From Okamejei kenojei (Eukaryota), in NCBI GenBank assembly GCA_035221665.1, contig CM069174.1:9858001-9922000 (forward strand): 64,000 nucleotides of DNA, given 5' to 3'. The notes under the pieces were generated by a model. It ran no database searches, was not told the origin of the DNA, and saw only the letters and a list, made by a program, of their open reading frames with translations. Within the stretch, counting starts at the first letter, position 1. Every line of letters begins with the position of its first letter. Positions 1 through 59,950 of the stretch are shown here, piece by piece. A program made the translations under genes and the position numbers.

Positions 1-814
1 CACGATCAGAACCATTAGACTTGTTCCTTCATTCTTTAGCTGAAATATTATTTCACTGCGCCTTTGTTTTGGAAATGTACACTTCTGGACCATTGAGGCA
101 ACTGAGACTTTAGTGAATGATAGAACCAGCTGTCTATATCCTCGACTAATGAGATTTAAGGATTGACAAAGAAATATAGGAATGATGGCGAATGAGTGAA
201 TCAGAGACAAATCAGCAAGAGAAAGAAAAATATGGAGAAAAAAGAAGAAATTGAGTAAGAGAACGAGGGTAATGAGCCAGAGAGGAAAGTAAAAAGTCCA
301 CACCAAAATTTAAAAACTGCAACAATTCTTGTTGAGATGAAACTCAATCGTTTCAATTACGCTTATGAATTGGAAAAATTGATTGACACGTATTAAGATT
401 ACTATTAAGAGAGTACTTATATGATTAATTATGAGCTTCAACTTAACTTTAAGGCATTTAAGCCTGTAAATCCATTGCGGCTTTTTGATTTAAATCAAAA
501 GCCTCAACTTTATAAGCCATGAAGAGAGGAACTAGGAAGTGCTTCGCATTAAAAAAAAGACACAAAATGCTGGAGTAACTCAGCGGGACCCACTGAGTTA
601 CCAAACTGGTGCTGAGAATCAACAAAATTTGCAGGAATAAACTGTCACAACAAACAATCTTTTTTTTGTAAACCAGCATCAGCAGTTCCTTGTGGCTAGT
701 GTTTACACATAACCGGAAAGCTAAAGATATGACGATAAATAAAAGAGCTGGGTAAGGCGCTGGCCCATTCTTGGTCACGTGTGTGACCAAATATATGAAA
801 AAATTGTGGAATAC

Positions 815-18799: not shown

Positions 18800-19645
18800 A
18801 CTCCCTACATCCACCCTGTCAAGCCCTTTTAGAATTATGCAAGCTTTCATGAGATCTCTCATTCATCTGAACTCCAGAGAACACAGACCTAGTCTACTTC
18901 ATCTCTCCTTGTGCTGTAAATGAGCCATTCCTGGAACCAGTCTAGTAAATATTTGATGCACTCTGGTGGCAATTACATCCTTTTTTGGGCAAGAAGATTA
19001 AAACTGTGCACAATACTCCAGTGTAATCTTGCCAAGGCCCTATACGATTGCAATAAGATCCCCTTATTCCTGTACTCCAAATCTTGTCATAAATGCTAAA
19101 ATACTATATCTCCTCTTAATTGTTTGCTGTATCTGTGTTCTGGCCTTCAGTGACTTGTTTACAAGCACCTTGGTCCTCCAATCCCTTTAAATGTCAACAC
19201 CTACCATTTAACAAATACTCTGCTTCTCTACAATGTCCACCAACAATGGACCTCCATTGGACAAACTGGTGTCTTTCTTTTTTCTGTATATTTTAACTGC
19301 CATGTTCACTCACTCAACTTGTCCATGTTGTCTTGAAGACATTTTGCATCCTAACCATTGCCACACCCAGTTTGGTGCCATCCGCCAACTTAAAAATACA
19401 CCACTTCATCCCCTCGTCGACTTAAGAAGGATCCATTTATTCCCGCTCTTTGGTTTCTCTGTTATAACCAGTTCTCAATCCATGTTAGTATGTTATCCCT
19501 AATTCCATGTGCTTGTGGGCCAACTTTTCTGGGACCTAAACAAACACCTTTTGAAAAACGAAGCGCACTACATCTTCCAGTTTTCCCCACATCTATTTTA
19601 CCAAACGCATGCTCAAGGAACTCCAGAATATTAGTCAAACATGTT
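18800..19645 (-). mobile_element. Old CR1 RT fragment
   Basis: ORF 19462-19683 CLTNILEFLE...HGIRDNILTWIENWL. Confidence 0.7.
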
Positions 19646-20233
19646 ACTTCTGTGGTCATTGGAAATGTTAACACTATTTGCATGCACGGAGTACATTTAC
19701 TTGTGCGAGCATAGATCTTTTCTATTAAAATTTGTGCAACTGGCTAAAATAGTGTTGCCTCAGCGACACCTGTGTCTCTTCAGTGATTTATATTGCACAG
19801 CACTGGTGTAGTAAGTGTCTGCTGAGCAGAAGACTAACATTGCTCTATTATAACAGAGGTTTACTTAAAGCACTTGGGGACATGTTTGTTCTGCTGAGTT
19901 TAATATTCCTCTGGCTCAGAGAATTCCCAGTGCTAACATGCCTTCTACTTGATCAAGTGATTATTCATGCCGTATACTACAATGAGCAGAAATGTCATGT
20001 ATATCAACTGCATGCATGTCAGCTACCTTTTGTCTTTAAATGATGAGTACATAGGAAAGCCTGCACTTTATTTCTCAATTAAATTATATATTTTCTTTGT
20101 TTTTGTTGAACTGTGGTTCTTTATGTATTGAAAGGAAGCATTGTCTATGTTTCCATCTATTTAGAAATCAAGAGATCATTTGGATGATCAATGAGGTCAG
20201 ATTTAGCACCATTTGAATTGCTGTTATTCCAGA

Positions 20234-20659
20234 AGATAGACACAGAATGCTGGAGTAACTCGGTTGCAGGCAGCATCTCTGGAGAGAAGGAATGGATGAC
20301 GTTTCGGGTCGAGACCCTTCTTCAAACTATTTGCATGCACGAAGTACATTTACTTGTGCGAGTATAAATCTTTTCTATAAAGGTTCGTGCAACTGACTAA
20401 AATAGTTTTGCCTCGGGTATACCTGTGTCTCTTCAGTGATTTATTTGCACAGCACTGGTGTAGTAAGTGTCTCCTGAGCAGTTTTTAACGTTGCCCTATT
20501 ATAACAGAGGTTTACTTAAAGCACTTGGGAAGAAGGGTCTCGACCCGAAATGTCACCCATTCCTTCTCTCCAGAGATGCTGCCTGTCCTGCAGAGATACT
20601 CCAGCATTTTGTCTACCTTTTGGTGTAAACCAGCATCTGCGCTTCCTTCCTACACAGTA
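20234..20659. mobile_element. Fold-back Penelope-derived unit with a 204-bp captured loop and 10-bp flanking direct repeat
   Basis: Inverted arms 20234-20325 and 20529-20656; ttattccaga at 20224-20233 and 20660-20669. Confidence 0.85.
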
Positions 20660-22861
20660 TTATTCCAGATATGACCTGCACTTGGGAGTGTGCTGTGTAA
20701 TCGATGAACCCAGCTGTATAATTGACAGCCTGGTGTATAACTAACTAGACATTGAATAGGCACTGCCATCCGCTTCAGATAGTGAAATAGCTGGCACAGA
20801 GCCTGTTAGTTGAACTGCCCGTTCATGGACTTCCAGTACTATCCCCATACAGCACGGTCCAATGCTATTATTTCTGCCTGTGTGCAGTGTAGTGTGACAG
20901 CACGCTAGCTGGTACAATCTCGTGGCCACACCAGCCTGACAGGAGGTTGAAAAGGCCATCTGACAGCTGAAGAACAATAAGGCCTCTGAAATCCCCTGGC
21001 ATGCTCTCCACCTCCCAGATTGGATTATGAGTTTGTGCCAAAAGTATTTCTCTGCCATGTTTTGGAACTTCAGCAGGGATTCTGTCTGTTCCAGAGGCTG
21101 CCTTGTTGTTCAGCTGGCGGAGTCTGTGGTTCCCACACTGGACTCACCGGTCACCTTGGAACCCCCAAAACCAGAGTGGTAGAAAGTCATCCTGAATCCC
21201 AAGATACTGCTGAAGAAGATATACTGAAATTGTTGCAAGTTTTGTGCGTCCATTTGCTTTGCTAGTTTTCATGGCCTCTCTGAATGTGATTATCAATTTA
21301 ATGTTGGTATTTGGCAGGTTTGTGGGCCTGCCTGGAGCTGGAGTAGGATTGCCATACTTGTGGCTTAGCCAGGAGTGTGAAGAGTTTTATACTATCTGCT
21401 CATTAACAAATAGACCCAATGAGAGCAGACTACCATACTACAAAATCACACAAGTTCTGATAATATGGATTTTTTGCATGTTGATGCAAAAATGCTGCCG
21501 CTGCCTTCAAAGGGTTAATATGCTTAGAAATGTCTGGCAAGGATGTGTTCCAGCTTTTGCATCCTGCAACTGAAAAGACTCCAGTTCCTGCCCAAGGATA
21601 CAGACATTACTAATGGGAAAAGGTGATAGTACATTCGTGAAACTGAATTTTTATTTTGTGTTTTTTTTTAAAAAAAAGGCAGTACTGGAAACTGAAAAAT
21701 GTCTATGTGGGCCTGGGGTTAAGTGGAAATGAGGTCCAAGGCAGCCGCTACCTGCTTATGTGTCCAACGGCTACCTTGCGAACCTGCAAATTGAACCTGG
21801 TAAGGATCCTCGTCTTGATTTACACTTTTGTACACAATTTGCAGCCTAACAGTATGGCAAAGCAAGGTAACACTCCATTTATCTCCTCCTCCTGATTTAT
21901 TTTGTATATTTCATACATTTTCAAATACGTCTATGCCTTTTATGTGCACGTGATGCCTTGAATGATTAATTGTAGCCTTCGACCACGTTCTGGAAAGGAG
22001 ATGATACTTGGAGATCTTACCGTCACGTTACAGTGTACTCTGCCTGAAATCTTGCATGGGTACTGCACATCAACTGGTGTAACGGAAATCCATTAAGGGG
22101 CGGTTCCATAGCCAGCAGGCCCCATGCCAGTTATTTCAATATTTGAAGCGGATAGCAGTGCAGAGTAAATGTCTAGCTATTTACATGCCAGGCTAAGTCA
22201 TTTAGTGGATTGCACCAAGTTCGTTCATTCCGTTTTGGAATTTTTTTTTGCACCTTGCAAGGTCAAGAAGTTTGTGTTTTTTTGAATGGTTACTTCCCTT
22301 TCATAGTTCAGACCATTCCCTGCTCACTGCACAGTTCCAGTGATGGATGCCAAACAGGATAAAGGAATTATATTTCTTCTGTTTGCAAAGGGGCACAGGA
22401 GAAACAATTCTACTCTGAGATGTGAAATGTATATTCCATCTTTTATATGTTCAGTGCTTTGATTGGCAGCAAGAACTGATCAGAAGGGATGGGTCTCGAC
22501 CTGCAGAACAATGTGTAAAATGTCTTCCTGAATATTCCCGTTGCTGGCTGAAGACTTCATTGTGCCTGTGACCCAATAGTGTTTGAAATCTCTAATTTTT
22601 GGATGTAAGATATTTAATATAGATGAGTGCAGCTCACTGAATCACGAGTCAAAATGTTGCTTGTGCTTCTGGGCTCTTTTTTAAACTTGTCTCCTTGCTG
22701 GCATGGTAGGTGTTTCTAACTTGGAATAACAATGTCCACCACATCCTTTCCACACTAATGTATAACCACACAATGTAATTTCTTTTTTATTATTATTCAT
22801 TCACAGGATGTGGGTATTGCTGCCATAGTCAGCATTTACTGCCAATCCGTGATGGTCATTA

Positions 22862-23143: not shown

Positions 23144-25103
23144 TGTTAGAATAGCTTGGTGAGTTGCTGTAATGCATTCTAGAGATGGTGCACACAGCAG
23201 TGATAGTGCACCAGTGAAGGAGGGCTTGAATAGATGTGGGGGGATGGGATACCAATCAAGTGATCTTTTGTGATCAATCATGCTTGGGCTGCACTAGCAC
23301 TAACCACTCTGACCTGTGCTTTGTAGATGGTAGAGAGGCTTTGGAGTGTCAGGAGATGAGTCAATTATGTGCCCCGAGTTAAAGGATTAAGTTACAAAGA
23401 TGAAAACTCTTATTATTGATGCTCACCACAACATCGGCAAAGAGGAAGTTACTTTCTGGGAAGAAAAATCATTTATGTAATGGGATTTTAATCCCAAACG
23501 GTGGGAGGTTTGCTGCTATGGTTTGTGAAAATCCATTGGATTTCTGCTGCTGCTTTTGAGGCAGAAATCCAAAGCATCAGAGAAATGATGAAATATTAAG
23601 ATGAGTCTCCAGAGGGGAAAAGACTGAGCAGCACTGGTGATGGGTCAGTCTGCCTATTGATCCCACCGTGGATCACCGTGTTTTAGACTGTGGTGAACAT
23701 CCTAAGAAAAGGTTGTTTTAGAATTTTCCTACCCCCTTCGTATTACCTGGGCCAGTAGATTTCCTTCACGGGCAGCTTTGTGCAAATAAATTGGCAATTG
23801 TAATATTTTTTGGACAGCAGTCAATTGCTTCCCTTTGTGCTTAATCGCCACAAAGCATCCATTCTTTTAGAAGTGCTAGGGCGGGAAGGATTCAATGCCA
23901 GACAGGTGTGGTTCCAGGGTGGTTTTGGTCTGGGCTGGGAACCCAGAGGCTGAAAGCTCAACTTCCAAGATAGTACATTGTAATTTATGGACTATGCATA
24001 GTCACTCTGGTCTGACCTGAGCTTAACTCCTGATGATTTCTCAAGTCGTTTGGCAATTTGTATATATTTAAGTTTGAATCTTGTTGGACTGCTGTCTGGA
24101 TTAATGCATTGGCCATTATTTCTGCACGTATTCAAGCTGCACATAATGCCTGCACCTGCATTCTTCTTTGATTTTTTTTTAAATGTCCATCATTTTAAAT
24201 AATTCCATCTTAAAAGGAAATGAAGTAGAACATTTGAGTCTTCCCTCTAAACCCAGCATCACGTTCCAGAATTATTGTTTATTGCACACATGTACTGCAG
24301 ACATGAATTGTTTGAAAGTTTAACAGTTACCAAGTTAACTCGTATTTTTGGGTCAACCTTCCAGCAGACCATAATCTCGCCTCTTTATTGTAATATTCTC
24401 CAGTCACCATTTACTCCTCTCAAACCGTGGGAGGTTTGCTATTGTGGTTTGTGATTTGTCTAAACTTGGAGTGTAGCCTTGTAATTTCTCCTTGTGTTGA
24501 TTCCAGGGAGTCCTGTTGCCAAAGATAAGTGCTGTTCTTGTAGATGCCCAATGCAGCCTTTTGCTAAAGTGGTGTTGTAATGGGTTATTCACTGTGAATC
24601 AGCAAATGATGTCATCATGGTTCCCATTTTGAATCATCTTGGCTGTAGTGTAGGGATGCAAGAGGAAGGATTGTGTTGAATGTTGTTGCAGTAAGATTTC
24701 TCTTCACTTCTCTTACTTGCCCCTGACTGTATGAAGGAATAATTATTGTAAATTTGAAATCAAGGCCTCATTTTTGTTCTTTCAAAACTCTCAAATCACG
24801 ATTCGGCTTTTCTTGAGCAGTATTTGTATTTGTATAACAAAAACTCATCAAGCAAAACATGTCAAACTAGTACTTCATTTTAGGTTTGGGCATCTCCACA
24901 GAGAGGAGCGAGGTCATTTTGTGATAATTGGGTTTCGCCCCCCACAACTCCCTCAAGTGTAAACCCTTCCTTGCAACAATTGTACATGTTGTGGGTGACG
25001 TTAATCTCCCAGGACACTTGTTGATGGCATGTGATCCAGAGGAAAATCTGACCGGTAGTGACAAAGGGCTCAACAGGTTCCCCTGAAATGGACCTGTGAT
25101 ATG

Positions 25104-26012
25104 CAGGGCCGGCCTGAGGTGCGGGGCCCACTTGGGAACAATTTTCATATAAATATATAATTATAAATGAGTCGTATTTAGGCACTTGCCGTGAGTAATT
25201 ACTCAGTGTAGGCAGTCAGTCGGCTTTTTAAAAATCTGAAACCGCGCATGCGCAGATTGTTCTCCTCTCCGTAAAAATAAAAAATAAAAATAAAGTAACA
25301 AATTCAATTTGCCCAAGGCTTCCAAATCTTCTTCATACTGAATGGGTGGGGGGGTGGAGGGTGACGGCAGGTGGAGAGATGGTGGGGAAAAATAGGAGCA
25401 CACCGGGACAAGTTGAATCAGTTGCTCTGGGTGCGGAGCCACCGCATTGTGGCCGGGGTGGGAAGCAGCTCATGTGGTTACGAGCGGCCACCGGGACCTC
25501 AGCGCCTTCTGCCAGCCCGCTCACCTCTGGCAGTGCTCTCCGTCTGAACGGTGATGGGACCAGCTCAAGAGCGAAGATCATAGAGCGGAGTGGGTCAGCG
25601 GTTGATGGATAACAGGACAGCGGGCAGTGGAGCTTACTCCAGTGTCAGCGAGAACAAGGGACCAATTGAGGTTACTCACACTGACGTATGGAGTAAGCTC
25701 CACCGCTCCCGCTGTCCTATTATCCTTCGCCCGCTGACCCACTCTTGAGCTGGATGCTGACGTGATCCCTGACCCCCTGCTTCTCAACGCTCCTGCCCTC
25801 CCCATAACTACTGGCTGTTAACAAGTGCTAACAGTGGTAGTTAACAAATCGTTTTTGTTTGATGGCCGGTGCAGCGGTTTTTATCCATGTTCGTTTTTTT
25901 AAAAAAAAATCTGTATTTAACAAGGCAAATTCGTATTTCCGTACGAAATACAGAAAATTAGCGCGGGGCTCATTTGGGAGCAATCGGTCCAATTGGCTTA
26001 AGGCCGGCCATG
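25104..26012. mobile_element. Non-autonomous hAT-type DNA transposon (909 bp)
   Basis: TIRs cagggccggcct / aggccggccatg. Perfect 8-bp TSD gtgatatg at 25096-25103 and 26013-26020. CpG-rich interior, no transposase. Confidence 0.88.
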
Positions 26013-30086: not shown

Positions 30087-31538
30087 ATGAGCTAGACTGG
30101 GTAAGGTGGCAGACTTCCTTCCTTGAAGGACTTTATTTGTGACCACAACACTTCATAAGAAGCTTGTAATGAATAAAAAAATTATACAAAATGAAATCTA
30201 ATGAAAAGATTTGGAACTGTCTAGTCCAAGTATAATGCTGCTGATCTATTGCTGTCTAGTAAATAAAATAGATTTATGATTTTGGCTTTCAACTGTAGTT
30301 ATGGCCAATTTTAAGTGGACAAGAAACCCTGGTGGCCAAGCCCTATGCGATTTATGATGTGTTACACTGTGACAAGGGGTGAATTTGCTTTAATGGATTG
30401 CTGTTGCATTAACACCAACTGTAAGGGATAGGATTTCACTTGCACCTTGGAATGCTTCTGGAAAATGCCTTTTCCTTATCACCATTTATTCAGTGTTGGG
30501 AGGTAGCCTGGATTCTAACAGTCCTGCGAGTTCACTGCTGCTGACATGATGTTGGGACCTGCAACATTGTGTTGTGTGTTTTTTCACTCATCAGCTACCT
30601 TCGCCCTCTTGGACCTGGGTTTGATTTTGGCATAAATGGAAGGGATGACTAAAGTGATCAATTGCAAAAATCTTCGCTGAAGACAGAGAGTGAGTTTGCA
30701 ATGGATATGAGTTTGTGTTATTTGGTGTAAATGGATGCTGCATTGGATAATTGGGAGTTGCTTCATTCTCTGCCCTTGAGTAAAGTATACTTCAAATATT
30801 TGTGGAAAGTTTCTTGTGTCTTCATTTTGAGAAAATTTAAAAAGTAGGTACATTGTGCTAAACCTGCATCGAACCTATCATTAAACCCTAATGAATGATT
30901 TTGTTTTTTTATTTGGACTTGTTAACCTGCATATCTTTTAGTCAATGGTGTATTTGTTCTTCGAGATCACTTTTGTTCCTCCACCCCAACCAGCCTCTTA
31001 CCATTCAAGTAATAAATGACCTCCTCTGAGCTCCATTGTCCTGACCAAAATGTACTGCTTCACCTAGGTCTGTATTGAATTTCATTTTCCCTTCTGCAAG
31101 CTGCTTATTGCCCACCTGTAATTTGCTGCAAACAGCTTCCAAATTGATATAATCCGAAATGTTCAAAAAATAGTTTTATTTTAAATAATGAATTTAAATT
31201 GTGAACAGCAATGTGCCTGGCACTGATCCTTGAGAAGCACCACTGGTCACCGCCTTCCACGATAAATAGCTGCCCTTTACTCCCAATTTGTCTTGAAGTC
31301 GGCCAGCAACCCATTTTGCTGATTGCTCCACATGCTTTGACCTTATTCATTCTCACGTTTTTCGGTATCTGACTGAAGATCTTTTGAAAATTGAGATGCA
31401 TTACACCAATTGAGATGCATTACACTGTTTGCTCTCTGTTACTTAAAATCATGACAAATCTATTAACCATGGGTTCAGCTGCAGGGATTAAAGATTGGAA
31501 GGCGTGTAATGTCTTTTAACTTTTTTTTATTATTCCAG

Positions 31539-31645
31539 ATCCATGAATCAGAACTTTCAAAACCAATTAATGGAGTCGCCTTCCTTGTGAATAAATCCAA
31601 CCAACTCCAGTACTGCTATTATTCTGTCACGCTTAGCCAGCGATC
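31539..31645 (+). other. GALNT6: 5' UTR part of the first coding exon
   Basis: Strong acceptor ttttaacttttttttattattccag| ending 31538, leaving 107 nt of UTR before the ATG. This implies at least one upstream non-coding exon. Confidence 0.75.
31543..31590 (+). other. Upstream ORF (15 aa, MNQNFQNQLMESPSL*) in the 5' UTR
   Basis: ATG at 31543, second in-frame ATG at 31570, TGA at 31588-31590, ending 55 nt before the main ATG. Confidence 0.6.
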
Positions 31646-32136
31646 ATGAGACTATTTTTTAGGAAACGCTTTGGTCCAGTGAAACTTGCTCTGGTCAGTG
31701 TAATATTTATGATATTTGTATTCATACTCCAAAGAGATGTCGTCAAGCAGAGCCCAGAGGATGAATCTTGGCTTAAGGACTTGTCGGGCAGGAAAGATAG
31801 AATGCTGGGCATTATGTTTGGAGCGGTGAATAATATCCGGGACTCGATGCCTAAGTTTCAGATCATTGCTCCAGATCGAGGCCAAGAGGATGTTGATAAC
31901 ACCAAGAATTGTTTGCCAGGATTCTACACTGCAGCGGAACTGAAGACCTTTCTTCCCCGGCCTCCTGAAGATCCCAATGCCCCTGGTGTTGATGCAAAGG
32001 CTTTTCATACGGACAATCTCTCTCCCGAACAGCAGAAGGAGAAAGAGCGTGGTTTTGAGAAACATTGCTTCAATGCCTATGCCAGTGACCGCATCTCTTT
32101 GCACAGGAGCCTTGGACCAGACACACGACCTCCAGA
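31646..32136 (+). CDS. GALNT6: Polypeptide N-acetylgalactosaminyltransferase (GALNT6-like), coding exon 1: cytoplasmic tail, TM anchor, stem, start of catalytic domain
   Basis: MRLFFRKRFGPVKLALVSVIFMIFVFILQRDV...CLPGFYTAAELK...HCFNAYASDRISLHRSLGPDTRPPE. The short MRL.R.R N-terminus and the WAFI* C-terminus fit GALNT6 better than GALNT3. ATG has A at -3. Donor GA|gtagga at 32137; 491 nt. Confidence 0.93.
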
Positions 32137-32447
32137 GTAGGATATTTTGCATTTCTTTTGTCAAGAATTTCTGTGTGTAGGAGGGAGGATGTTATTTGGT
32201 TATAAGTTTGTGCTCGGTATTGTTCAGATAACTGATATTGGGAAATTGGCGACTTTCCCAGATTCAGGAACCAGTTTCAACTTTTAAGCAGGGTACACAA
32301 AGTCCATCTATATGGCCTATTATCTCAAAGTATCCCTTAATATAAAATCCTGTACCAACTTGCTGTGGAGCCCCTGACTACAATTTCCATTTCACTGTCA
32401 AGTAGGAATAGATTACTGCTGTTGACTCATTCTGACCGAGGAACCAG

Positions 32448-33024: not shown

Positions 33025-33197
33025 GTGTATTGAACAAAGATTCAAGCGTTGCCCTCCTCTACCTTCAACCAGTGTGATTATAGTGTTCCACAATGAGGCC
33101 TGGTCCACCTTGCTGAGAACTGTGTACAGTGTGATGCATACATCCCCAGCCATACTGCTAAAGGAAATTCTATTAGTGGATGATGCCAGCACAGATG
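33025..33197 (+). CDS. GALNT6: GALNT6-like coding exon 2
   Basis: Acceptor tttgtgcag|, donor |gtgagt; 173 nt. [36 protein letters not shown]...[11 protein letters not shown] (GT2 fold start). Phase matches both neighbours. Confidence 0.96.
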
Positions 33198-34108
33198 GTG
33201 AGTTTTTAGTCACTTGTGTTTGAAATCGGAATACGGGATTTTATTTTAAAAACGTGTTAATCTTAAAGTTGGTGAATTTGTGGTCAATAATAAATCCCAT
33301 GACTAAAATATAAGCAGACATTGGAAGCCCCTTATCAGACCATGGCACTTGCTGTTTTCTCCAAGAGTTGGTTGTTAAATGGAGTAGGTTTGAACAATCC
33401 AAACTGGGACTATCCCACCAATGGTCCTCTGGCTCTTGTCAGATGTTCGTATCGGTTTTCTCTCAGTTTTCATGGCTTCAGTTGAGGGAGTGGGTTGTCC
33501 TAATTTATCAAGTCTTTTGTGAACTTAACCCATCATCTCTGTAAAATCCAAGTGAATCTGCATTGCAATATATTCCATTGCATTTATAACCTTCCTGTAA
33601 TGGAGAGTCCGAAGCTGCAGGTTGTCTGAGGTCGTGCAGGACGTATGGGATGGGCTGGTGCATCTTCACCTGTTGTTCGTGTTTGGATGTTATACGCTTC
33701 TGCTGATGAAACCCAAGTGGATTGCTTGTTTCATGGCCGTAGCTGCTTCAGTTCTCTCCTTCTCAATGACCCACACATCTGGTCCTCTATTCCATTTAAA
33801 TAGCTTGCCCCTTTTCCTCATTCCTTCTCCCCAAATGTTTTCGGGCTCTTGAAGAACGTGGAATGCTGCATCACAGGATCGGGCCCCATCGGCCCACAGT
33901 GTCTGTGTCGAAAATGATACCTAAACCAACTCTTATCTGCCTGCACCCATTTCCACGAGCTTATCAAGAGTCTCTTAAATGCCACCATTGTATCTGTCTC
34001 AACCACCACCACCACCTCCAGCAGCACGCTCCAGGCACTCGCCACCCAAAGTGTTTTTTAAAACAAAACTTGCCACATCTCGTTTAAACTTTGCCCCTCT
34101 CGCCCTGA

Positions 34109-34729
34109 TGGCCCTGTCCCACTGTACGAGTTCATTCAAGAGCTCTCCCGAGTTTAAAAAAAAATCAAACTGATGGTAAGCACGGAGAATGAACGTAGCG
34201 GGTATGTCGGAGCTCGGGGATGTCTCGTAACGCTAACGGCAGGTACTTGGAGGAAATGCGGTAAGCTCGGGAAGACTCGTGAAGATTTTTCAACATGTTG
34301 AAAAATGTCCACGAGAGCCCCAAGTACCGACGAGCGGCCATTACCGTAAATCTCTGAGTTCTAATCGGGGCAAACTCGGGAGATCTCTTTGAATGAACTC
34401 GTACAGTGGGACAGGGCTTTGAAGGGCCTGTCCCACTATACGAGTTTACCCAAGAGCTCTCCAGAGTAAAAAAAAAATCAAACTCGTGGTAAGTACGTAG
34501 AATGTACGTAGCGGGTACGTCGGAGCTCGGGATGGCTCTTAGCGGCTCGTAATGCTAACGGAAGGTACTCGGGGAAACGCGGTGAGCTCGTGAAGTTTTT
34601 TCAACATGTTGAAAAATGTCCACGAGAGCCCCGAGTACCTACGAGCGGCCATTACCGTAATTCTCCGAGTTCAAATTAGGGGAAACTTGGGAGAACTCTT
34701 GAATCACCTCGTACAGTGGGACAGCCCAT
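34109..34729. mobile_element. Two tandem PIF/Harbinger-like MITEs (34109-34419, 34423-34729)
   Basis: Each has long TIRs gccctgtcccactgtacgag / ctcgtacagtgggacagggc; 3-bp tga/tga/tta boundaries. Confidence 0.85.
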
Positions 34730-36244: not shown

Positions 36245-36444
36245 AGGGCCTGTCCCACCTGAGCGTTTATTCGCGTCACTTTGTGAATCCCAAAATCCTG
36301 GGGCGCCACGCGTGACTGCGCGTCACTGCCTACACCTCCACGCCTCGCCATACGCACGTAATGCACGCCATGCGCACATCACGACGCACACGTTGTGACA
36401 CATAAATGATGTCGTGCAAATAACGCCCAGGTGGGACAGGCCCT
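36245..36444. mobile_element. PIF/Harbinger-like MITE (200 bp)
   Basis: TIR agggcctgtcccacctg / caggtgggacaggccct; TAA TSD. Confidence 0.88.
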
Positions 36445-36534
36445 TAAGTAAACACAGCAGCTACTTCACACGTTGCAAGTTCCGTGCAAACAGCAATGTG
36501 ATAATGGCCAGATAAGCTTCTTGCAATGTAAAAG

Positions 36535-37495: not shown

Positions 37496-38107
37496 AGGGC
37501 CTGTCCCACTTGGCCGTCATTTAAACGACAGGCCGGTAGTGACTGACGCATGACGATCGCGCACGTTATCATGCGTCCGCACAGCTGTCTGGAGCGCGTG
37601 ACGTCATTTGAAGATGGACACAAAATGCTGGAGTAACTCAGCGGGACCGGCAGCATCTCTGGAGAGAAGGAATGGATGATGTTTCGGGTCTAGAGTCTTC
37701 TTCAGTCTGAAGAAGGTTCTCCACCCGAAATGTCACCCATTGCTTTTCTCCAGAGATGCTGCTGGTCCTGCTGAGTTACTCCTGCATTTTGTGTCTATCG
37801 CCAATCATTTTGGCCCCGCTCTGGGAGTAGGAGTGGGGGAGGATCCAGATCTGCAACAAGCTCGGCGATCGCTTGCCTGCTTCTGCTGCTGTTGGAGGTG
37901 AAACGTTGCACCGCGCCAGGGTGTCCCACTTGTCCGTCATTTACGCGACAGGCCGGTGGCGCGCAAAGATTTCGTCCAGAACGAAATCCTGGAGCGCTGC
38001 GCGATATACCACGCGCAACTCCACACTCCACGCCACTCCATGCGCCCGTCCCGCGCTACCAGGGCGCGTAAATGGCGCGCAAATGACGGCCAAGTGGGAC
38101 AGGTCCT
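37496..38107. mobile_element. Composite PIF/Harbinger-like MITE
   Basis: TIR agggcctgtcccacttggccgtcatt / aatgacggccaagtgggacaggtcct; TTA TSD; second left end at ~37917; fold-back hammerhead unit inside. Confidence 0.85.
37613..37797. repeat. Full fold-back unit with a hammerhead core on both strands
   Basis: Palindrome centred on cttcttcag-t-ctgaagaag (37697-37715); ~90-bp arms. Confidence 0.85.
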
Positions 38108-38539
38108 TTAGTGATTAAGGAATTGTACTTTTTTTTCCCCCATCACTCTAATAACTCTGAGATGCTGAGGACAACTTGGTGGGTTGGATTAAGGTCAGGT
38201 AACAGCGCAGAGCCTTGATCTGGAACAAAAATCAAAAAACTGCAGATGCTAGAAACTGAAATAAAGAGAGAATGCTGGAAGCACTCGGGCAGCGTCTGTG
38301 AAAAGTCAAGAGTCAAGAGAGTTTATTGTCATGTGTCCCAGATAGGACAATGAAATTCTTGCTTGCTGCAAGTGAAAAGTAAAACAGTTAACGTTTCAAG
38401 TCGGAGATCTTTCATCTAAGGACATTTGCAAAGAGGCATATGGCAACCCTGGCCTCGCCCTATCAAAGATATTCTCTGTGTCCTGTCCATCCTTCTCCTG
38501 CCTACTGTAGCTTAACACTAACGTGTTCTTTCTCTTACT

Positions 38540-39123: not shown

Positions 39124-39472
39124 GTAAGTATATTTGTGTGTCCCTCCCAATGTTAAATGAGGATTTTTATGCAAACAGGGTCATCAGCCCAGATATTGAG
39201 TGGCATGTGAAATTGTCCATTTTGGCAGGAAAAAAATTAAAAACACAAAACATATTATCAAAGTGATGAGACTTTGCAAAGCTCTGATATGCAGAGGGTG
39301 CCCTAGTGCATGATTCACAAAAGGATAGTCTGCAGGTAAGTAAGTCACAAGGAAAGTTAACATAATTTTGTCATTTATTGCTAGGGAATTGAATGCCAAA
39401 GTAGGGAGGTTGTGCTTCAGTTATAGAAGACTTCGGTGAGGCATATATGGGATGCTGTATACAGCATTGGTC

Positions 39473-39568
39473 TCTGAAGAAGGGTCTCAACCCAAAACGT
39501 CACCCATTCCTTCACTCCAGAGATGCTGTCTGTCCCGCTGAGTTACTCCAGCATTTTGTATCTATCTA
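39473..39568 (+). mobile_element. Short Penelope-derived hammerhead unit inserted in an old CR1 fragment
   Basis: Starts tctgaagaagggtctcaacccaaaacgtc; CR1-like sequence on both sides (about 39290-39760). Confidence 0.8.
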
Positions 39569-40202
39569 CAATGAAGAATGTAGATATGTTGGAAGTAGTT
39601 CAGAGAAAGTTTATTAAACGGGTATCTGGAATGAGGAGGGGGTTGATTTGTCAAGAAATGTTGAATTGGGTGGGTTTGTACCTGCTGTAGTTGAGAAGAG
39701 TAAGTGGGAACTTGATTGGAACATATATGATTCTGAGTGAGCAGTTGATAGGAAGATGCTATCCTAAGGACCCCACTAAGCCCTCTACCAGCTGTTTGTT
39801 ACCAGTTGTGTGTAAAAGTGAAGTGACTAACCTTTGGCATAGATCCGTGGGTGTCAACTGGTAGGTGCAACAGCCAATAATAAATGGGGATCTGCTATCC
39901 TGCCTTTGTTTCCAGGACATAAACTTAGAATATTAACTGACGGTACTGTGCCAGGTGCAGTTGCAGGATACCTCTAAGATTGTGAAGGTTACAAGGGGAA
40001 AATGAATTGCTGGTGAGTCTGTGTACTTGGGTTGCAAAATCTAGCAAAAGAAAGAAGAAGCCAAGGTAAAGATTTGAGGTGTGAGAAGCAGCAAGTTCAA
40101 GGTGGAGTCTATACATAGGCTAAGGGCCTTGGATTTGAGGAATGTCCTTCCTGCGACTACATTTGGTTCCATAAATTCAGTATCGGACTTTGCCACTGAA
40201 TT

Positions 40203-40412
40203 TGTGTAGGAAGGAACTGCAGATGCTGGTTTAAACTGAAGATAGACACAAAAAGCTGGAGTAACTTAGCGGGACGCAGCATCTCTGGAGAGAAGGAATG
40301 GGTGACATTTCTGGTACTTCCAACATATTTACATTCTCAACACAAAATGTCACCTTCGCATTCCCAGAGATGCTGCCCATCCCGCTGAGTTACTTCAGCT
40401 TTTTGTGTCTAT
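40203..40412. mobile_element. Fold-back Penelope-derived unit with a 23-nt foreign loop
   Basis: Inverted arms 40203-40314 and 40338-40412. Confidence 0.8.
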
Positions 40413-41713: not shown

Positions 41714-41948
41714 GTGAGTGCTTTAGTGGATGGTTGGAACCTTTGCTGGGAAGAATAGCTGAAAATTACACTGCTGTGGTCAGCCCTGACATCACTACCA
41801 TTGATCTCAATACTTTTGAGGTATCCAAACCAGTCCAGTATGAAAGACATCACAACCGGGGTAACTTTGACTGGAGTCTGTCATTTGGCTGGGAGGCTCT
41901 TCCATCTCATGAAATAAAGAGAAGAAAAGATGAAACGTATCCTATCAA
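41714..41948 (+). CDS. GALNT6: GALNT6-like coding exon 4
   Basis: Acceptor atatttag|, donor |gtgagt; 235 nt. [31 protein letters not shown]...[13 protein letters not shown]...DETYPIK. Confidence 0.96.
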
Positions 41949-42450
41949 GTGAGTGTCTTGTGTATTTGGTGATAATATTGAATTTTCATATTGAATATTT
42001 TTTTATTCCATATCTTAAGTGAACAATAGAATGGTACACCCAAGAATTAATAACCTGTAGAAATGTTAAAGCACAGAAGTAAATCATTTGGCCCATTGAG
42101 TTCATGCTGGCTTCTTGAAGAACAACCTATTCTTAACTCATTCCTCTGCCCCTTTGCATAGCCCAGTAAAGTATTTTCCTTAAATGTCTATCTTTTTTTT
42201 GTTGAAAGTACTGATTTGCTCTGATCCCATCATCATTTTAAGGCAACTGGTCCAATTCATAACCATTCATCAGTAGAAACATTCTTGCATCCCTCGCAGT
42301 CTTTGTGAACGGGAATAACTTTCTTCTTGAACAGCAGAATGGTGCACACATTGTTGTGCAATCTGAAGTAGTGCAAGAAAAGTGTAAGTACTCGAGAGTA
42401 TGAGGCAGCACTTCTGGGAAGGGGTGTGAAAGAGGTGATTGGTTCAGGAG

Positions 42451-42631
42451 ATGGACACAAAATGCTGGAGTAACTTAGTGGTACAGGCTGATTATTCAGT
42501 CTGAAGAAGGGTCTTGACCCAAAACGTCACCCATTCCTTCTCTCCAGAGATGCTGCCTGTCCCTCCGAGTTACTCCAGCATTTTGTGTCTGTCTTCGGTT
42601 TAAACCAGCATCTGCAGTTCCTTCCTATACA
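42451..42631. mobile_element. Partial fold-back hammerhead unit with 15-bp TSD
   Basis: tgattggttcaggag (42436-42450) / tgattggctcaggag (42632-42646). Confidence 0.85.
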
Positions 42632-43309
42632 TGATTGGCTCAGGAGTCTGATAGCTGTGGGGAAGAAGCTGTTCTGAAGTCTGTATGTCTGACCTTGCAA
42701 ACAACTGTATCTTCTCCCAGAAGCTAAAAGAGAAAGGAATGACCAGGGTGACAGATATTATAGTCATAGAGTGATACAGTGTGGAAACGGGCTCTTTGGC
42801 CCAACTTGCCCACACCGGCACCGGTATCCTTGATAATACTCCCAGCCTTCCTGCGCAATGCACTGTGAAGATAGACTGGATGGAAGGAAGCGGCTAGCCT
42901 GTGATGGACTCGGCTGTGTTCACCACACTCTGCAGGTTGAGGCCATCCAGAGGAGAGTAGTTGCCACATTGGGCTGAGATGCATCCCGTCAAAATACTTT
43001 CTATAATGCATTTGTAGAAATCGTAGAGAATCCTTATGAATTTGATGAAACCTCAGATGCACTATATAAAAATAAAGAGCGGGGGGGCACCAGCGTTGAG
43101 GGTCACAGTAGAGGAAATGTTGTGACCAAATTGAACTGATTCGGGTCTGCTGCTCATGAAGTCCAGAAGCCAGCTGCAGATGATGATCCAAGGCATAGGT
43201 CCAGAAGTTTGGAGATGAGCTTATTTAGTATTGAAGGCTGAGCTGCTGCAGTCAAAGAACAACATCCTAACATAGGTGATCTTGTAATCAAGGTGATCCA
43301 GAGCTGAAT

Positions 43310-48389: not shown

Positions 48390-49345
48390 TTAGAACATAG
48401 AACAGTACAGCACAAGAACAAGCCCTTTGGCCTACCAAGTTTGTGCCAAACAGGACCTCAGTCTGAAGAAGGGTTTTGCCCCGAAATGTTGCCTTTCCTT
48501 CGCTCCATAGATGTTGCCTCACCCGCTGAGTTTCTCCAGCACTTTTGTCTACCACCAAATAGGCCTATTTAAACGAATTCCTTCTGCCTACGTGTGAACT
48601 ATATCTCTCCACTACCTGCATATTCATGTGCCTATCTAAGGCAAACACTGCACATATCCTTTAAAGTTTCTCCCCCACCTCACGTTTAAGGTATGCTCTG
48701 AAATATTTGACATTTCCACCAGGGGGGAAGGGGGGTTCTGACTGTCTTCCTTAGCTATGCCTCTCATAATTTTATGTTTCTATCAGGTTCTCCCTCTGCT
48801 GCCTCTGCTCTGGGGAAAACAATCCAAGTTTGTCCAATGTCTCCCCACAGCCTGTTCCCTCGAATCCAGGCTGCATCTTGATAAACCTCTTCTGCACCCT
48901 CTCCTTTGTGTAATGAGACCGGAACTGCATAAAACACTCCAAATGTAGCCCAACTCAAGTTTTATAAAGCTGCAACATGACTTCTCGACGTTTATGTTCC
49001 GTGCCTTGACCGATGAATGCAAACATGCCATTTGCCTTCCTGACCACTGCTACTTTCAGGGAGCTATGGACTTGAACTCCAGGATCCCTCTATGCATCGA
49101 TGCTGTTGAGGATCCTGCCATTAACTGGATAATTTATCCTTGCATTTGACCTCCCACAGAGCAGCATCTCACACTTGCCTGGATTCAACTAACTCCATTT
49201 GCCGTTTCCCTGCCCATATCTGTAACTAATCTACGTCCTGGTGTATCCTTTCACAGCTGCCTTTATGCTCCACACCTTCATACATTTTAGTCTTCTTCAA
49301 GCTTATTAACCAACCCAACTACATTTTCTTCCAAGTAATTTATCC
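48390..49345 (-). mobile_element. Older CR1 3' part
   Basis: (tagaaca)n tail, decayed ORF2 (LGQTWIVFPRAEAAEG frame), RT remnants to ~49340. Confidence 0.7.
48455..48555 (+). mobile_element. ~100-bp Penelope-derived hammerhead unit with TSD, inside a CR1 tail
   Basis: ccaaacagg (48446-48454) / ccaaatagg (48556-48564). Confidence 0.75.
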
Positions 49346-49599: not shown

Positions 49600-49717
49600 G
49601 ACTCCCGCGTTTGCTGGTGGCCTCTTTGCGATCTCCAAAGCTTACTTTGAACTGATTGGAACATACGACAACCAGATGGAGATATGGGGAGGAGAGAATG
49701 TGGAAATGTCATTCAGG
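49600..49717 (+). CDS. GALNT6: GALNT6-like coding exon 5 (Gal/GalNAc-T motif); absent from the ORF track
   Basis: Acceptor tattttcag|, donor |gtaaat; 118 nt. [39 protein letters not shown]. Confidence 0.96.
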
Positions 49718-50092
49718 GTAAATGCAAATGCTTATATTTATAATGGTGCTCCTTGGTTGTGTGTTGGATTTTTAATTTGAACGTGATGTTGTGGTCTAAA
49801 ATGTAAAGGCACAGCCTATTTTCCATGAGAAACTGCCCAGGACTGTATTCAATTCGCTGATCATCATCACGACACCAACTGAACATATCACTTGGTCTCC
49901 GTTCTGCTGGGCCAATGAGGGCAAAACAAATCTTTTAGTGTTTTCCCTTTCTGATCGAGTGTCTGATTATTTGGAAAGACCAAGATCAGGCTCCATACCC
50001 TCCACATGTAAAGCCCAAGGTCACGATGAAGAATTGATGAGATGCCAGTCCCAAAGGGCACTCGCAAAGGTACCCCGCTTGTTCTCGGTGGA

Positions 50093-51268
50093 CCAGGGCC
50101 CCATCCCCGACCTCTACCTCCGTTACATCGACGACTGCTTTGGTGTCACCTCCTGCACCCACACACAACTGACTGACTTCATTCATTTCACCACCAACTT
50201 CCATCCGGCACTCAAATACACTTGGACCATTTCCGACACTTCCCTACCATTCCTTGACCTCACCATCTCTATTGCAGGTGATACACTCCTGACCGACATC
50301 CACTACAAACCAACTGACTCCCACAGCTACCTGGACTACTCTTCCTCCCACCCTGCTTCCTGTAAGGACTCCATCCCCTATTCCCAATTCCTCTGTCTAC
50401 GCCGCATCTGCTCCCAGGATGAGGTGTTCCACACCAGGTCATCACAAATGGCCTCATTCTTCAGAGAACGGGGATTCCCCTCCCCCACTATTGATGAGGC
50501 TCGCACCAGGGTCTCCTCCATACCCCGCAACACTGCCCTCTCTCCCCATTCCCCCACTCGCAAACAGGACAGAGTCCCCCTGGTCCTCACCTTTCACCCC
50601 ACCAGCCGGCAAATAAAACACATAGTCCTCCGCCAGTTTCGCCACCTCCAACGTGACCCCTCCACCCGCCACATCTTCCCATCTCCCCCCCTGTCTGCCT
50701 TCCGCAAAGACCGCTCCCTCCGCAACTCCCTTGTCAATTCTTCCCTCCCCTCCCGCTCTACCCCTTCCCCAGGCACTTTCCCTTGCAACCGCAAGAAATG
50801 CAACACTTGTCCCTTCACCTCCCGCCTCCACTGCTTTCAGGGACCCAAGCAGTCCTTCCAGGTCCGACAGAGGTTCACCTGCACCTCCTCCAACCTCATC
50901 TATTGCATCCACTGCTCCAGATTTTCTCAATTCTGTTAACCCTTGCTGTCTCCTCCCCTTACCACCTCTCCCTCAGCCCTCGGGCCCTGGCATTCCCTCT
51001 ATCTCTATCTCCCTCCCCCACCCTAGTCGCACTAGCTTCTCATTTTCACACCACAAACAGCGTACAATGGCTTGTTCCCTTTATCATCGATACTTTTTTG
51101 CATATCTTTCGTTCATTGTTCTTTATCTCTCCACATCATCGTCTATATCTCTCGTTTCCCTGATCCCTGACCAGTCTGAAGAAGGGTCTCGACCCGAAAC
51201 GTCGCCTATCTCCTTCGCTCCTTAGATGCTGCTGCACCCGCTGAATTTCTCCAGCTTTTTGTGTTACC
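50093..51268 (+). mobile_element. Penelope-like element, 5'-truncated, with internal deletion of most of the GIY-YIG endonuclease
   Basis: ORF 49938-50939 contains YLRYIDDCFG (RT motif C), HYKPTDSHSYLDYSSSHP, SIPYSQF..RRICS, VPLVLTFHP, CNRKKCNTC and FTCTSSNLIYCIHCSR, then jumps near 50920 to a C-rich 3' end with a hammerhead core. The first ~50 codons of the ORF are read-through flank. Confidence 0.9.
51174..51205 (+). ncRNA. Minimal type I hammerhead ribozyme motif in the Penelope 3' end (best-preserved copy)
   Basis: CTGAAGA (51176-51182), extra A, stem II GGGTC-TC-GACCC, GAAA (51196-51199), palindromic stem III AC/GT, GTC cleavage triplet (51201-51203). Stem I is only ~2 bp. Confidence 0.7.
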
Positions 51269-54798: not shown

Positions 54799-54999
54799 GT
54801 CTGGCAATGCGGTGGGCAGTTGGAGATCATTCCCTGTTCAGTGGTGGGCCATGTGTTCCGCACCAAGAGCCCGCACAGCTTCCCAAAAGGTGTGCAGGTA
54901 ATTGCCCGCAACCAGGTGCGTCTGGCTGAGGTCTGGATGGATCGCTACAAGGAGCTGTTTTACAGGAGGAACCAGCAGGCAGAAACAATGGCCCGTGAG
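54799..54999 (+). CDS. GALNT6: GALNT6-like coding exon 6
   Basis: Acceptor ttctttag|, donor |gtgagt; 201 nt. [67 protein letters not shown]. Confidence 0.96.
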
Positions 55000-55639: not shown

Positions 55640-56278
55640 GTGAGTTAAATGATGCATTAAATTAATAAACTTTAGTTTGTTTAAAATATGAATGAATTGA
55701 TTCTGAATTGCAATTTTTCCTTTTATTTAAATTAAGAAATAGTTTTTCAACAGATTTAACAGGCATTGAAATTGCACCAAAGTTTTGAAACTGGTGAATG
55801 TTTTAATATCTTGATGTGGTTTTGATTTGTTTTAGATCATAACTTTGAGGGTTTTTTTCTCATTTGCATTTTAAAATCTATGAACCAAACTTCCCAAGGT
55901 TTGGCAAGGAGCATTTAGCTCCAGAGTTATTGAGTGCTTCCAGAAAAATACTTTTAAACTAGAACAACAAATTGTTTTTAACTATGATTTATTAAAAATC
56001 TGTATTTCTTCATTATTTTTAATGTATAAATGGAATTAATTCTGCTCTATGTTGTTTAGATCCCACCTTCCTGAATTATTTCCCTTGGCACTTTTTCTCC
56101 TAGTCTTCAGATTTCTCTCCTTGCACTCAATCCCTACTCCCAGTTTAGATTGCCACTGTCCTATAAAATACTATACATCTCTCCATGTAATGAACCCTAC
56201 AGAAATCCAAGTTCAATTAATAAAATACTATACATCTCTCCATGTAATGTTGAGAAGCAGAACCCGCATGAGGCTGAA

Positions 56279-59524: not shown

Positions 59525-59950
59525 TGGAGATGCTGGAATCTTGAGCAAAACACAGTGCTGCAGGAACTCAGTGGGTCAAACAGCATCTGTGGAAGGAATG
59601 GACATGCAACGTTTCGGATCGGGACACACTAAAGTCGCCTGCCCTTCCACACTAAAGTCGCCTGTCCATTCCCTCCATAGATGCACTTTGTGTTTTGGCC
59701 ACAAATAATAATATCTACTTCCAGTTAAACGGATCCTTTAAACAAAGGTTTATCAAGGTTCACATAACTATTATCGAACAGTGGTTGGTGCCTATGGAAG
59801 CCTAATTCTGCTCCAGTGCTATGCATTCAGGAGAAATAAGAGAAGTAAAGTGAAGTGAATATAGGGTACACAAAAAGCTGGAGAAACTCAGCGGGTGCAG
59901 CAGCATCTAAGGAGCGAAGGAGATAGGCGACGTTTCGGGTCGAGACCCTT
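59525..59950 (-). repeat. Two further Penelope-derived units (older fold-back 59525-59697; younger single arm 59864-59950)
   Basis: Shared terminal motif gctggagaaactcagcggg...gcagcatct; truncated hammerhead cores. Confidence 0.7.

Follow-up and report, generated by a model that had tools for sequence, protein, structure and literature searches.

Copies of nearby host DNA between head-to-head Penelope-like ends: an old insertion scar upstream of a GALNT3-like gene in Okamejei kenojei

How does a piece of host DNA come to lie, to the base, between two inverted copies of the end of a mobile element? This question is raised by a cassette at 20224-20669 of a 64,000-nucleotide stretch of Okamejei kenojei DNA (contig CM069174.1 of assembly GCA_035221665.1; hereafter the window). 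The cassette is composed of two inverted arms, which correspond to the end of the pseudo-long terminal repeat (pseudo-LTR) of a Penelope-like retroelement, and of a loop between them which copies DNA situated a few hundred nucleotides upstream. The analysis covers this one window, and relatives of the species were seen through the contigs of public sequencing runs. In the reading that we favour, at roughly even odds, the loop is a patch of local DNA that was pasted at the head-to-head joint of the two pseudo-LTR ends by end-joining repair while the element was being integrated.

A BLAST search of the loop against the window returned a single other match, the donor (Table 1), in direct orientation and with 89.3% identity over 206 columns (E ~1e-73). 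The alignment of donor and loop contains 20 substitutions and two 1-base deletions. The end of the donor is separated from the start of the loop by 447 nt (653 nt from start to start), and the homology to the donor ceases to the base at both arm junctions. A first-pass annotation of this DNA, made by eye, had described a direct duplication of about 85-90% identity some 450 bp away, located exactly between inverted arms; both parts of this description hold. The inner 57 nt of the two arms (20267-20323 and 20529-20585) are 96% complementary, and the arms reach outward to 20234 and 20656. As a whole, the cassette folds into a hairpin with a z-score of -17 against 100 shuffles. The flanking decamer that the same annotation had noticed, TTATTCCAGA, is exact on both sides, and it occurs a third time in the window at 31530. 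Since this exact repeat surrounds the unit, we regard it as a 10-bp target-site duplication. Each of the focal arms has bases that are absent from the other, namely the tail on the right and the centre bases on the left, and neither arm is therefore a plain copy of the other. Self-fold-back of a single complementary DNA (cDNA) is disfavoured for this reason. Over its 95 nt, the left arm shows six substitutions and a single 2-nt deletion relative to the majority sequence of the window copies. Both the donor (19676-19683) and the loop (20329-20336) retain ATTTGCAT, which we take to be the octamer motif.

Table 1. Positions of the cassette, its donor, the reference copy of the arm family and two further fillers (window coordinates)
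Feature	Position	Strand	Basis or remark
Donor of the loop: single-copy non-coding DNA	19673..19878	+	BLAST; single-copy depth, bins 19742-19855, in 4/4 relatives
Left copy of the 10-bp target-site duplication; final two bases match the element end too	20224..20233	+	
Left arm: pseudo-LTR 3' end, short end without tail	20234..20328	-	Hammerhead C3 changed (20325)
Loop: direct copy of 19673-19878; net insert 20329-20528 (200 nt)	20326..20529	+	
Right arm: pseudo-LTR 3' end starting within the hammerhead core	20529..20618	+	Loop bases in place of C3 and U4; C15.2 changed
38-nt tail extension, right arm only; then 3 unassigned nt (20657-20659)	20619..20656	+	
Right copy of the 10-bp target-site duplication	20660..20669	+	
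Family reference: 5'-truncated Penelope-like element, then pseudo-LTR ending in the same arm	50070..51268	+	Motifs
Second case: filler between the arms of pair 40203-40412	40315..40337	.	22/23 identical to the reverse complement of 39575-39597 (0.7 kb away)
Third case: filler within the right arm of pair 558-695	603..655	+	83% identical to 2210-2262 (1.6 kb away)

The arms belong to a family with 29 matches in the window, found with a profile built from the window copies. The nature of the family is indicated by the reference copy, whose reading frame has YIDD at 50124, CX5CXXC at 50784 and the start of a GIY-YIG-like motif at 50892, and is broken thereafter. A repeat at 50984-51268 follows this truncated reverse transcriptase (RT) and GIY-YIG-like frame and ends in arm-family sequence. 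The focal arms are 80-82% identical to 51178-51262, and form a sister subfamily of the reference copy. Pfam gave no match for the reference frame, and an Atlas comparison led to PF26215 HTH_animal clusters. The designation of the frame as Penelope-like with a Neptune-type linker is provisional: it comes from motifs, some of them named after PMC8557442, CX2-5CXXC being the sole clade motif seen. Endonuclease-bearing Penelope-like units of this type are described as having inverted pseudo-LTRs with a palindrome at the inverted junction, a tail at one end and a target-site duplication of 8-10 bp (PMC3846280, PMC8557442, PMC8969392). The focal unit shows the inverted arms, the one-sided tail, the short duplication and the homology to a pseudo-LTR behind an RT/GIY-YIG frame that are expected of such an insertion.

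The state of the hammerhead in these arms was examined with a minimal-hammerhead descriptor modelled on PMC4209133. The descriptor was passed at two places in the window, 48463-48490 and 51176-51203, the latter being predicted to be an intact minimal hammerhead. Like the minimal hammerheads of metazoan Penelope-like elements and non-LTR retrozymes (PMC4209133, bioRxiv 10.64898/2026.07.22.740005), the family motif consists of CUGANGA, one bulged base, helix II, GAAA, the palindromic CG and UC. Both focal arms fail the descriptor, the left by its changed C3 and the right by the loss of C3-U4 and a changed C15.2. The first-pass description of the arms as hammerhead-bearing is thus right for the family, in which 51176-51203 passes, and wrong for the two arms of the cassette. 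No Rfam family reached the gathering score in the window, and none of four 56-nt core segments, when folded, yielded a hammerhead signal that could be used (z from -0.7 to 1.0). Since the cores are broken, the focal arms are probably decayed pseudo-LTR 3' ends and not working ribozymes, and the term ribozyme element was an overstatement. Unlike the hammerheads of the cited elements, the two damaged cores lie on opposite strands, and the unit is not a head-to-tail tandem.

Two other classes of element were considered for the cassette. A non-LTR retrozyme was rejected because the pair is head-to-head with damaged cores, not a head-to-tail tandem with complete hammerheads. A DNA transposon, either a miniature inverted-repeat transposable element (MITE) or a Pack-TIR (a host segment between terminal inverted repeats, TIRs), was rejected because the two ends differ by 38 nt and the length of the duplication is not fixed. 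Clear duplications are present in two of the eight head-to-head pairs of the window (10 and 15 bp), and are weak or absent in the other six. Arm patterns were sought in viral contigs, metagenome contigs and prokaryote genomes, and none were found there. Further copies of the cassette with the same interior were found neither in the window, which holds one loop copy, nor in the four relatives compared below, in which the loop stays at or under single-copy depth. The mobile look that the hairpin had suggested is a matter of appearance: the loop exists once and the arm ends are unequal. The cassette is a dead, non-mobile scar of a retroelement insertion plus a small local duplication, and it shows no sign of movement as a unit.

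The public-run search listed 24 runs, 20 of which contained the stretch, from eight organisms. Four runs (X9, X10, X15 and X19), which stand for four organisms other than the best-matching one, were compared at 80% likeness. The donor bins were at single-copy depth in all four relatives, the arms were at millions, and the loop bins never rose above single-copy. At this level of likeness, therefore, the donor is not a dispersed repeat, and the suspicion that the first-pass annotation had itself raised, that the loop might be a dispersed repeat with better distant matches, is not borne out by its single match in the window or by these depths. Run X10 carries the donor on one contig (19677-19874, with 4 differing letters and 3 gaps) and the loop on another (20330-20525, with 11 differing letters and 2 gaps); the two contigs break at their shared ends, as a two-copy repeat does. 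An assembly error is ruled out by the separate loop contig of X10 and by the 10% divergence, which excludes a collapsed or doubled read. The idea that the loop stems from a dispersed repeat or from faulty assembly, its nearby match being incidental, can appeal to the repeats directly left of the donor, where depth is raised (19571-19684), and to the reach of the search, which covered the window and four relatives and not a whole genome of this species. Against the single-copy depth of the donor and the separate contigs, it is the least credible of the explanations that we weighed.

The loop had no contig cover in X9, X19 and X15. We do not conclude from this that the loop is absent there, because short single-copy contigs flanked by very high-copy arms are prone to drop out and because, by distance, the loop predates these splits. 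Runs X9 and X15 were read to 86-88%, and X19 was shallow. The right flanks continue into the arm in X19 and X15 and halt at the duplication in X9 (the match ends at 20660, with 37 unmatched letters), while the left flanks continue into the arm in X9 and X19 and end 45 nt short in X15. Each of the four relatives is about 3-4% distant from the window in total. Among the 7 listed of the 11 loop differences in X10, three restore the donor base and four are X10-specific, and we estimate that 12-16 of the 20 donor-loop differences predate the split from the X10 species. The insertion event would then be older than the splits of all four relatives, the gaps in loop cover being drop-out or later loss. 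A tree joining the window species with the organisms labelled E and H was dropped; the pairing of C and D alone was supported, by two derived donor states. At 19794, the window has T in both donor and loop, against A in the donor of every one of the four relatives; a derived state common to these four, a parallel change, and conversion between donor and loop are alternatives here.

The arms and the loop appear to be of similar age. Divergence from the window majority is 6.3% for the left arm and 7.1% for the right, the arms differ from each other by about 7-9%, and donor and loop differ by 9.8% (95% range 6-15%). These ages are equal within wide error, so that one event, or two events close in time, would both fit. 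Polarisation with X10 placed more change on the loop side than on the donor side. Between the window and X10, 4 of 201 positions changed in the donor, 11 of 194 in the loop and 42 of 1142 in the flanks; slower change of the donor was not significant against the loop (p 0.07) or the flanks (p 0.29), and conservation of the donor is not claimed. Arm mismatches amount to 2/57 in the inner part and 6/29 in the outer part (p 0.016, for a split chosen post hoc and with clustered outer changes).

These results also bear on an order of events in which an older local duplication came first and two independent arm insertions then flanked the copy. Arms are dense enough in the window to make such a coincidence conceivable, and other old local duplicates lie nearby, such as 20719-20834 with 22084-22204. 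A single target-site duplication, however, encloses the whole unit, the homology to the donor stops to the base at both arms, removal of the loop restores the commonest fold-back joint, and the ages match. We consider this order of events very improbable.

Is the focal cassette an isolated case? Eight head-to-head pairs were counted in the window, comprising six derived from the profile and two recognised by eye (558-695 and 59525-59700). An automatic pair, 41469 with 42494, was excluded as two separate insertions 941 nt apart. Fillers of at least 20 nt that are not element sequence occur in three of the eight pairs, and the best window match of every one lies within 2.5 kb (Table 1). The scores of these local matches were 44 for the focal loop, 20 for 40315-40337 and 26 for 603-655, against 10 in the rest of the window. 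In a random control of 1200 anchored positions, 19 scored at least 20 and 31 scored at least 14. The chance of at least two local fillers among the seven unselected pairs is 0.005-0.02; the mask used for the local matches had been narrowed to the real tails after a first run in which it covered the donor of the 40315 filler. Within the window, the comparison of fold-back loops with control loci that the first-pass annotation had proposed thus comes out in favour of local origin. At unpaired arms, by contrast, no local filler was found (0/13), the best score of 14 being an arm's own duplication; two of these 13 arms probably run into the pseudo-LTR body, and the true ends of two further arms are outside the count. 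The difference between 3/8 pairs and 0/13 unpaired arms gives a Fisher p of 0.04, or 0.11 without the focal case.

The remaining five pairs comprise three that are joined directly, one with a 7-nt filler and one with an internal tandem repeat. The 7-nt centre filler belongs to pair 42436-42646, which has a 15-bp duplication with one mismatch, and resembles the start of that duplication. The tandem repeat, at the pair centre 59626-59665, is made of a 16-nt piece of the element itself. The fold-back pair 37610-37801, which has a perfect centre, lies inside a GC-rich element with 36-nt direct repeats (37502-37537 and 37922-37957) that are related to 36410-36448 and 38068-38110. For the second filler, the donor (39575-39597) presumably lies in a LINE-like fragment, other window copies of which match the filler at 16/23 at most. 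The 3' end of another arm (39469-39569) lies 6 nt from this donor, which may hint at a link between the two insertions. Judged by eye, the focal combination of a short left end and a tailed right end recurs in 6/8 window pairs, and about 6 of the 13 unpaired arms start inside the 9-nt motif TCAG-N-CTGA.

The junctions of the loop can be read against the plain fold-back joint of the family, CTTCA-G-A/T-CT-GAAG (37610-37801 is an example). The joint from 20324 to 20529 tops the joint list in all four runs, with at least 27-49 contigs in each. At the left junction of the cassette, the sequence is CTTCA-A-ACT and the donor begins with ACT, which gives a 3-nt microhomology if one substitution, at 20325, is assumed. 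At the right junction, one G is common to the loop and the right arm, and 1 nt is at the level of chance. Given a G-to-A change at 20325, the loop is likely to be a clean 200-nt insertion after the T of the plain joint, with nothing lost. Without this change, four bases would have been lost and the left microhomology would be absent; by our estimate, the clean insertion is about four times likelier. Base 20325 is not visible in the relatives because other copies swamp the arms.

The favoured course of events would be as follows. The endonuclease of the element would make a cut with a 10-nt stagger, and the element RNA would serve as template for the extension of both 3' ends of the target; synthesis would begin at the short start site on the left and, on the right, at the long start site, which includes the tail. 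Both cDNAs would come to a halt shortly after the hammerhead stem, at the self-complementary motif TCAG-N-CTGA. If two ends of this kind annealed, the result would be the plain fold-back, the common outcome. In the present case, the left end would instead have primed on the donor through ACT, the host repair polymerase or that of the element would have copied 200 nt, and the new end would have been joined to the trimmed right cDNA through the one G.

Several observations argue for this course. One exact 10-bp duplication surrounds both arms and the loop, and the ages of the arms and of the donor-loop pair agree. A Penelope-like protein has been purified that both cleaves and extends the two target strands, and its two start sites on the RNA delimit the tail (PMC11167929); a short arm and a tailed arm within one duplication may therefore reflect two cDNAs that grew toward each other. 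Unpaired arms that begin in TCAG-N-CTGA cannot have formed a long palindrome, and a stop at this motif would therefore arise at insertion. The 603-655 filler sits inside an arm of its pair, whose hairpin tip is intact. Locally templated fillers during retrotransposition are known for L1 and for fish long interspersed elements (LINEs) (bioRxiv 10.1101/2024.08.27.596794, PMC11702581, PMC10191854, PMC4245944). The claim of the first-pass annotation that neighbouring host DNA served as the template gains from the single-copy donor in four relatives, from the putative microhomology at the junctions and from the two further local fillers. Both routes that this annotation had proposed, a template switch during insertion and the patching of a cut palindrome centre, are compatible with the data.

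Other facts weigh against patching at the time of integration. To take 20325-20328 as arm requires the assumed G-to-A change. Taken together, the two junctions restore the commonest plain joint exactly, without the loss of a base, as would be expected more directly from a later cut made 2 nt 3' of the tip of the hairpin. Fillers are present in 3/8 pairs and in 0/13 unpaired arms, while patching during integration should mark single arms too. The donors are 0.45-1.6 kb away, which is more like gap-filling; the templates reported for L1 lie mostly within 15 bp. The species sampled did not include an outgroup in which the site is empty or the fold-back plain.

The chief rival is a sequence of two steps, in which a perfect fold-back (arms of about 90 bp, 3-nt loop) was inserted and its tip was soon cut, the break being gap-filled from nearby DNA so that the palindrome was broken and stabilised. 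We take this to be a serious contender, although we would not back it first. It accounts simply for a lossless, clean insertion into the commonest joint, for the confinement of fillers to pairs and for donor distances that resemble gap-filling. The break lies 2 nt 3' of the tip base, and Artemis opens hairpins at a distance of 1-4 nt (PMC2175297); hairpins whose loops are shorter than 9 nt are attacked by Mre11 (PMC8053094), and Pack-TIRs acquire nearby fillers after insertion with a median microhomology of 2 bp (PMC8277862). The loop, however, is no younger than the arms within error. Perfect fold-backs also persist, as the unbroken centre of 37610-37801 and the prevalence of the plain joint illustrate, and the 603-655 filler lies off the tip of its pair. 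The same geometry is moreover expected if a hairpin end was opened during integration, and it is because of this equivalence that the one-event reading is kept slightly ahead.

The template may also have been RNA. The RT of the element could have jumped from its own RNA to a nascent host transcript over the donor, possibly a 5' untranslated intron of the GALNT3-like gene, and copied 200 nt before being joined to the other arm. The orientation fits a right-arm cDNA reading a plus-strand transcript, the microhomology at the right junction is just 1 nt, and one co-insertion of local pre-mRNA has been reported for L1 (PMC10191854). Transcription of 19673-19878 is a supposition, however, the first coding exon being near 31640. 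The orientation in fact lends no support, because two cDNAs of opposite polarity can explain any orientation. We regard a jump between RNA templates as improbable.

The ingredients of the patch favoured here are all known singly: inverted pseudo-LTRs, captured spacers and templated fillers. With Penelope-like units the cassette shares the head-to-head arms, the tail on one arm and the 10-bp duplication and, at the level of the family, the minimal hammerhead in the repeat. Unrelated host sequences captured between solo pseudo-LTRs inside a duplication are mentioned in PMC3846280. The focal unit differs in having no coding part, and in that the captured piece was traced to a donor 447 nt away, as was done for local donors of two more pairs in the 64 kb. 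In the accessible portions of PMC3846280, PMC8557442 and PMC8969392, captured spacers are not traced to local donors. A literature search for work that traces fillers of Penelope pairs to local donors, or counts them, found none in the main texts, most subscription papers and supplements being outside the search.

For L1, 22 of 3,598 insertions carried templated insertions, of less than 250 bp and with templates typically within 15 bp (bioRxiv 10.1101/2024.08.27.596794), and zebrafish LINEs likewise show templated fillers at integration (PMC4245944). The cassette resembles these in that a host segment of less than 250 bp was copied, with putative short microhomologies, and the duplication was kept; the joining of opposite cDNAs is described in these sources. 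It differs in the class of the element, in that the filler links two overlapping inverted copies, and in the donor being hundreds of bases away. The filler rate looks far higher than that given for L1, with 2/7 unselected pairs against 22/3,598. Single-copy Pack-TIRs formed by transposition-independent gap-filling (PMC8277862) are similar in their nearby filler between inverted repeats, the small loss of element sequence and the single copy. Unlike in Pack-TIRs, the arms of the cassette derive from a retroelement and end unequally, whereas TIRs belong to a DNA transposon, and acquisition of the filler after insertion is here the rival reading.

The exons of the GALNT3-like gene (31640-57800) were placed by Pfam, by a structure-sequence match and by motif search. 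They lie on the plus strand near 31640-32137, 33040-33170, 38970, 41730-41940, 49600-49719, 54800-54990 and 57700. The donor is about 11.8 kb, and the cassette about 11 kb, upstream of the first coding exon. The window also contains other local duplicates. An older inverted duplicate (20719-20834 and 22084-22204; 76% over 121 columns) starts 50 nt to the right of the cassette, with no arm beside its second copy. A tandem duplication at 34106-34724 has a 310-nt unit with internal inverted repeats and 82% identity, and a 157-nt imperfect palindrome at 25588-25744 has no adjoining arm. Short local duplicates without an adjoining arm are present at 23492-23528 and 24418-24454 (37 nt, 86%) and at 56163-56192 and 56220-56249 (30 nt, exact).

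The focal scar, old and fixed, lies upstream of a GALNT3-like gene, and its interest lies in the apparent frequency of such fillers and in what the junctions tell about the integration of Penelope-like elements. Arm sequence occurs in well over 100,000 contigs per run, and about a quarter of the pairs have a filler from within 2 kb; if both hold, there would be many thousands of patches. We tentatively suggest, with doubt outweighing confidence, that, in this lineage, head-to-head Penelope pairs have often given rise to small local duplications across the genome, with thousands of patches whose junctions record the last step of Penelope integration. The later steps of Penelope-like insertion are described as not validated in PMC11167929. 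If the suggestion is correct, the junctions record the priming of both ends, cDNAs that stop or snap back at TCAG-N-CTGA, the opening of hairpins and templated joining. Such junctions would be a natural record of how Penelope insertion is completed and of why the inverted pair with a one-sided tail is so common. Should the rate of 2/7 hold genome-wide, the same process would have supplied thousands of local non-coding copies of 20-200 bp, which would be raw material for regulatory change.

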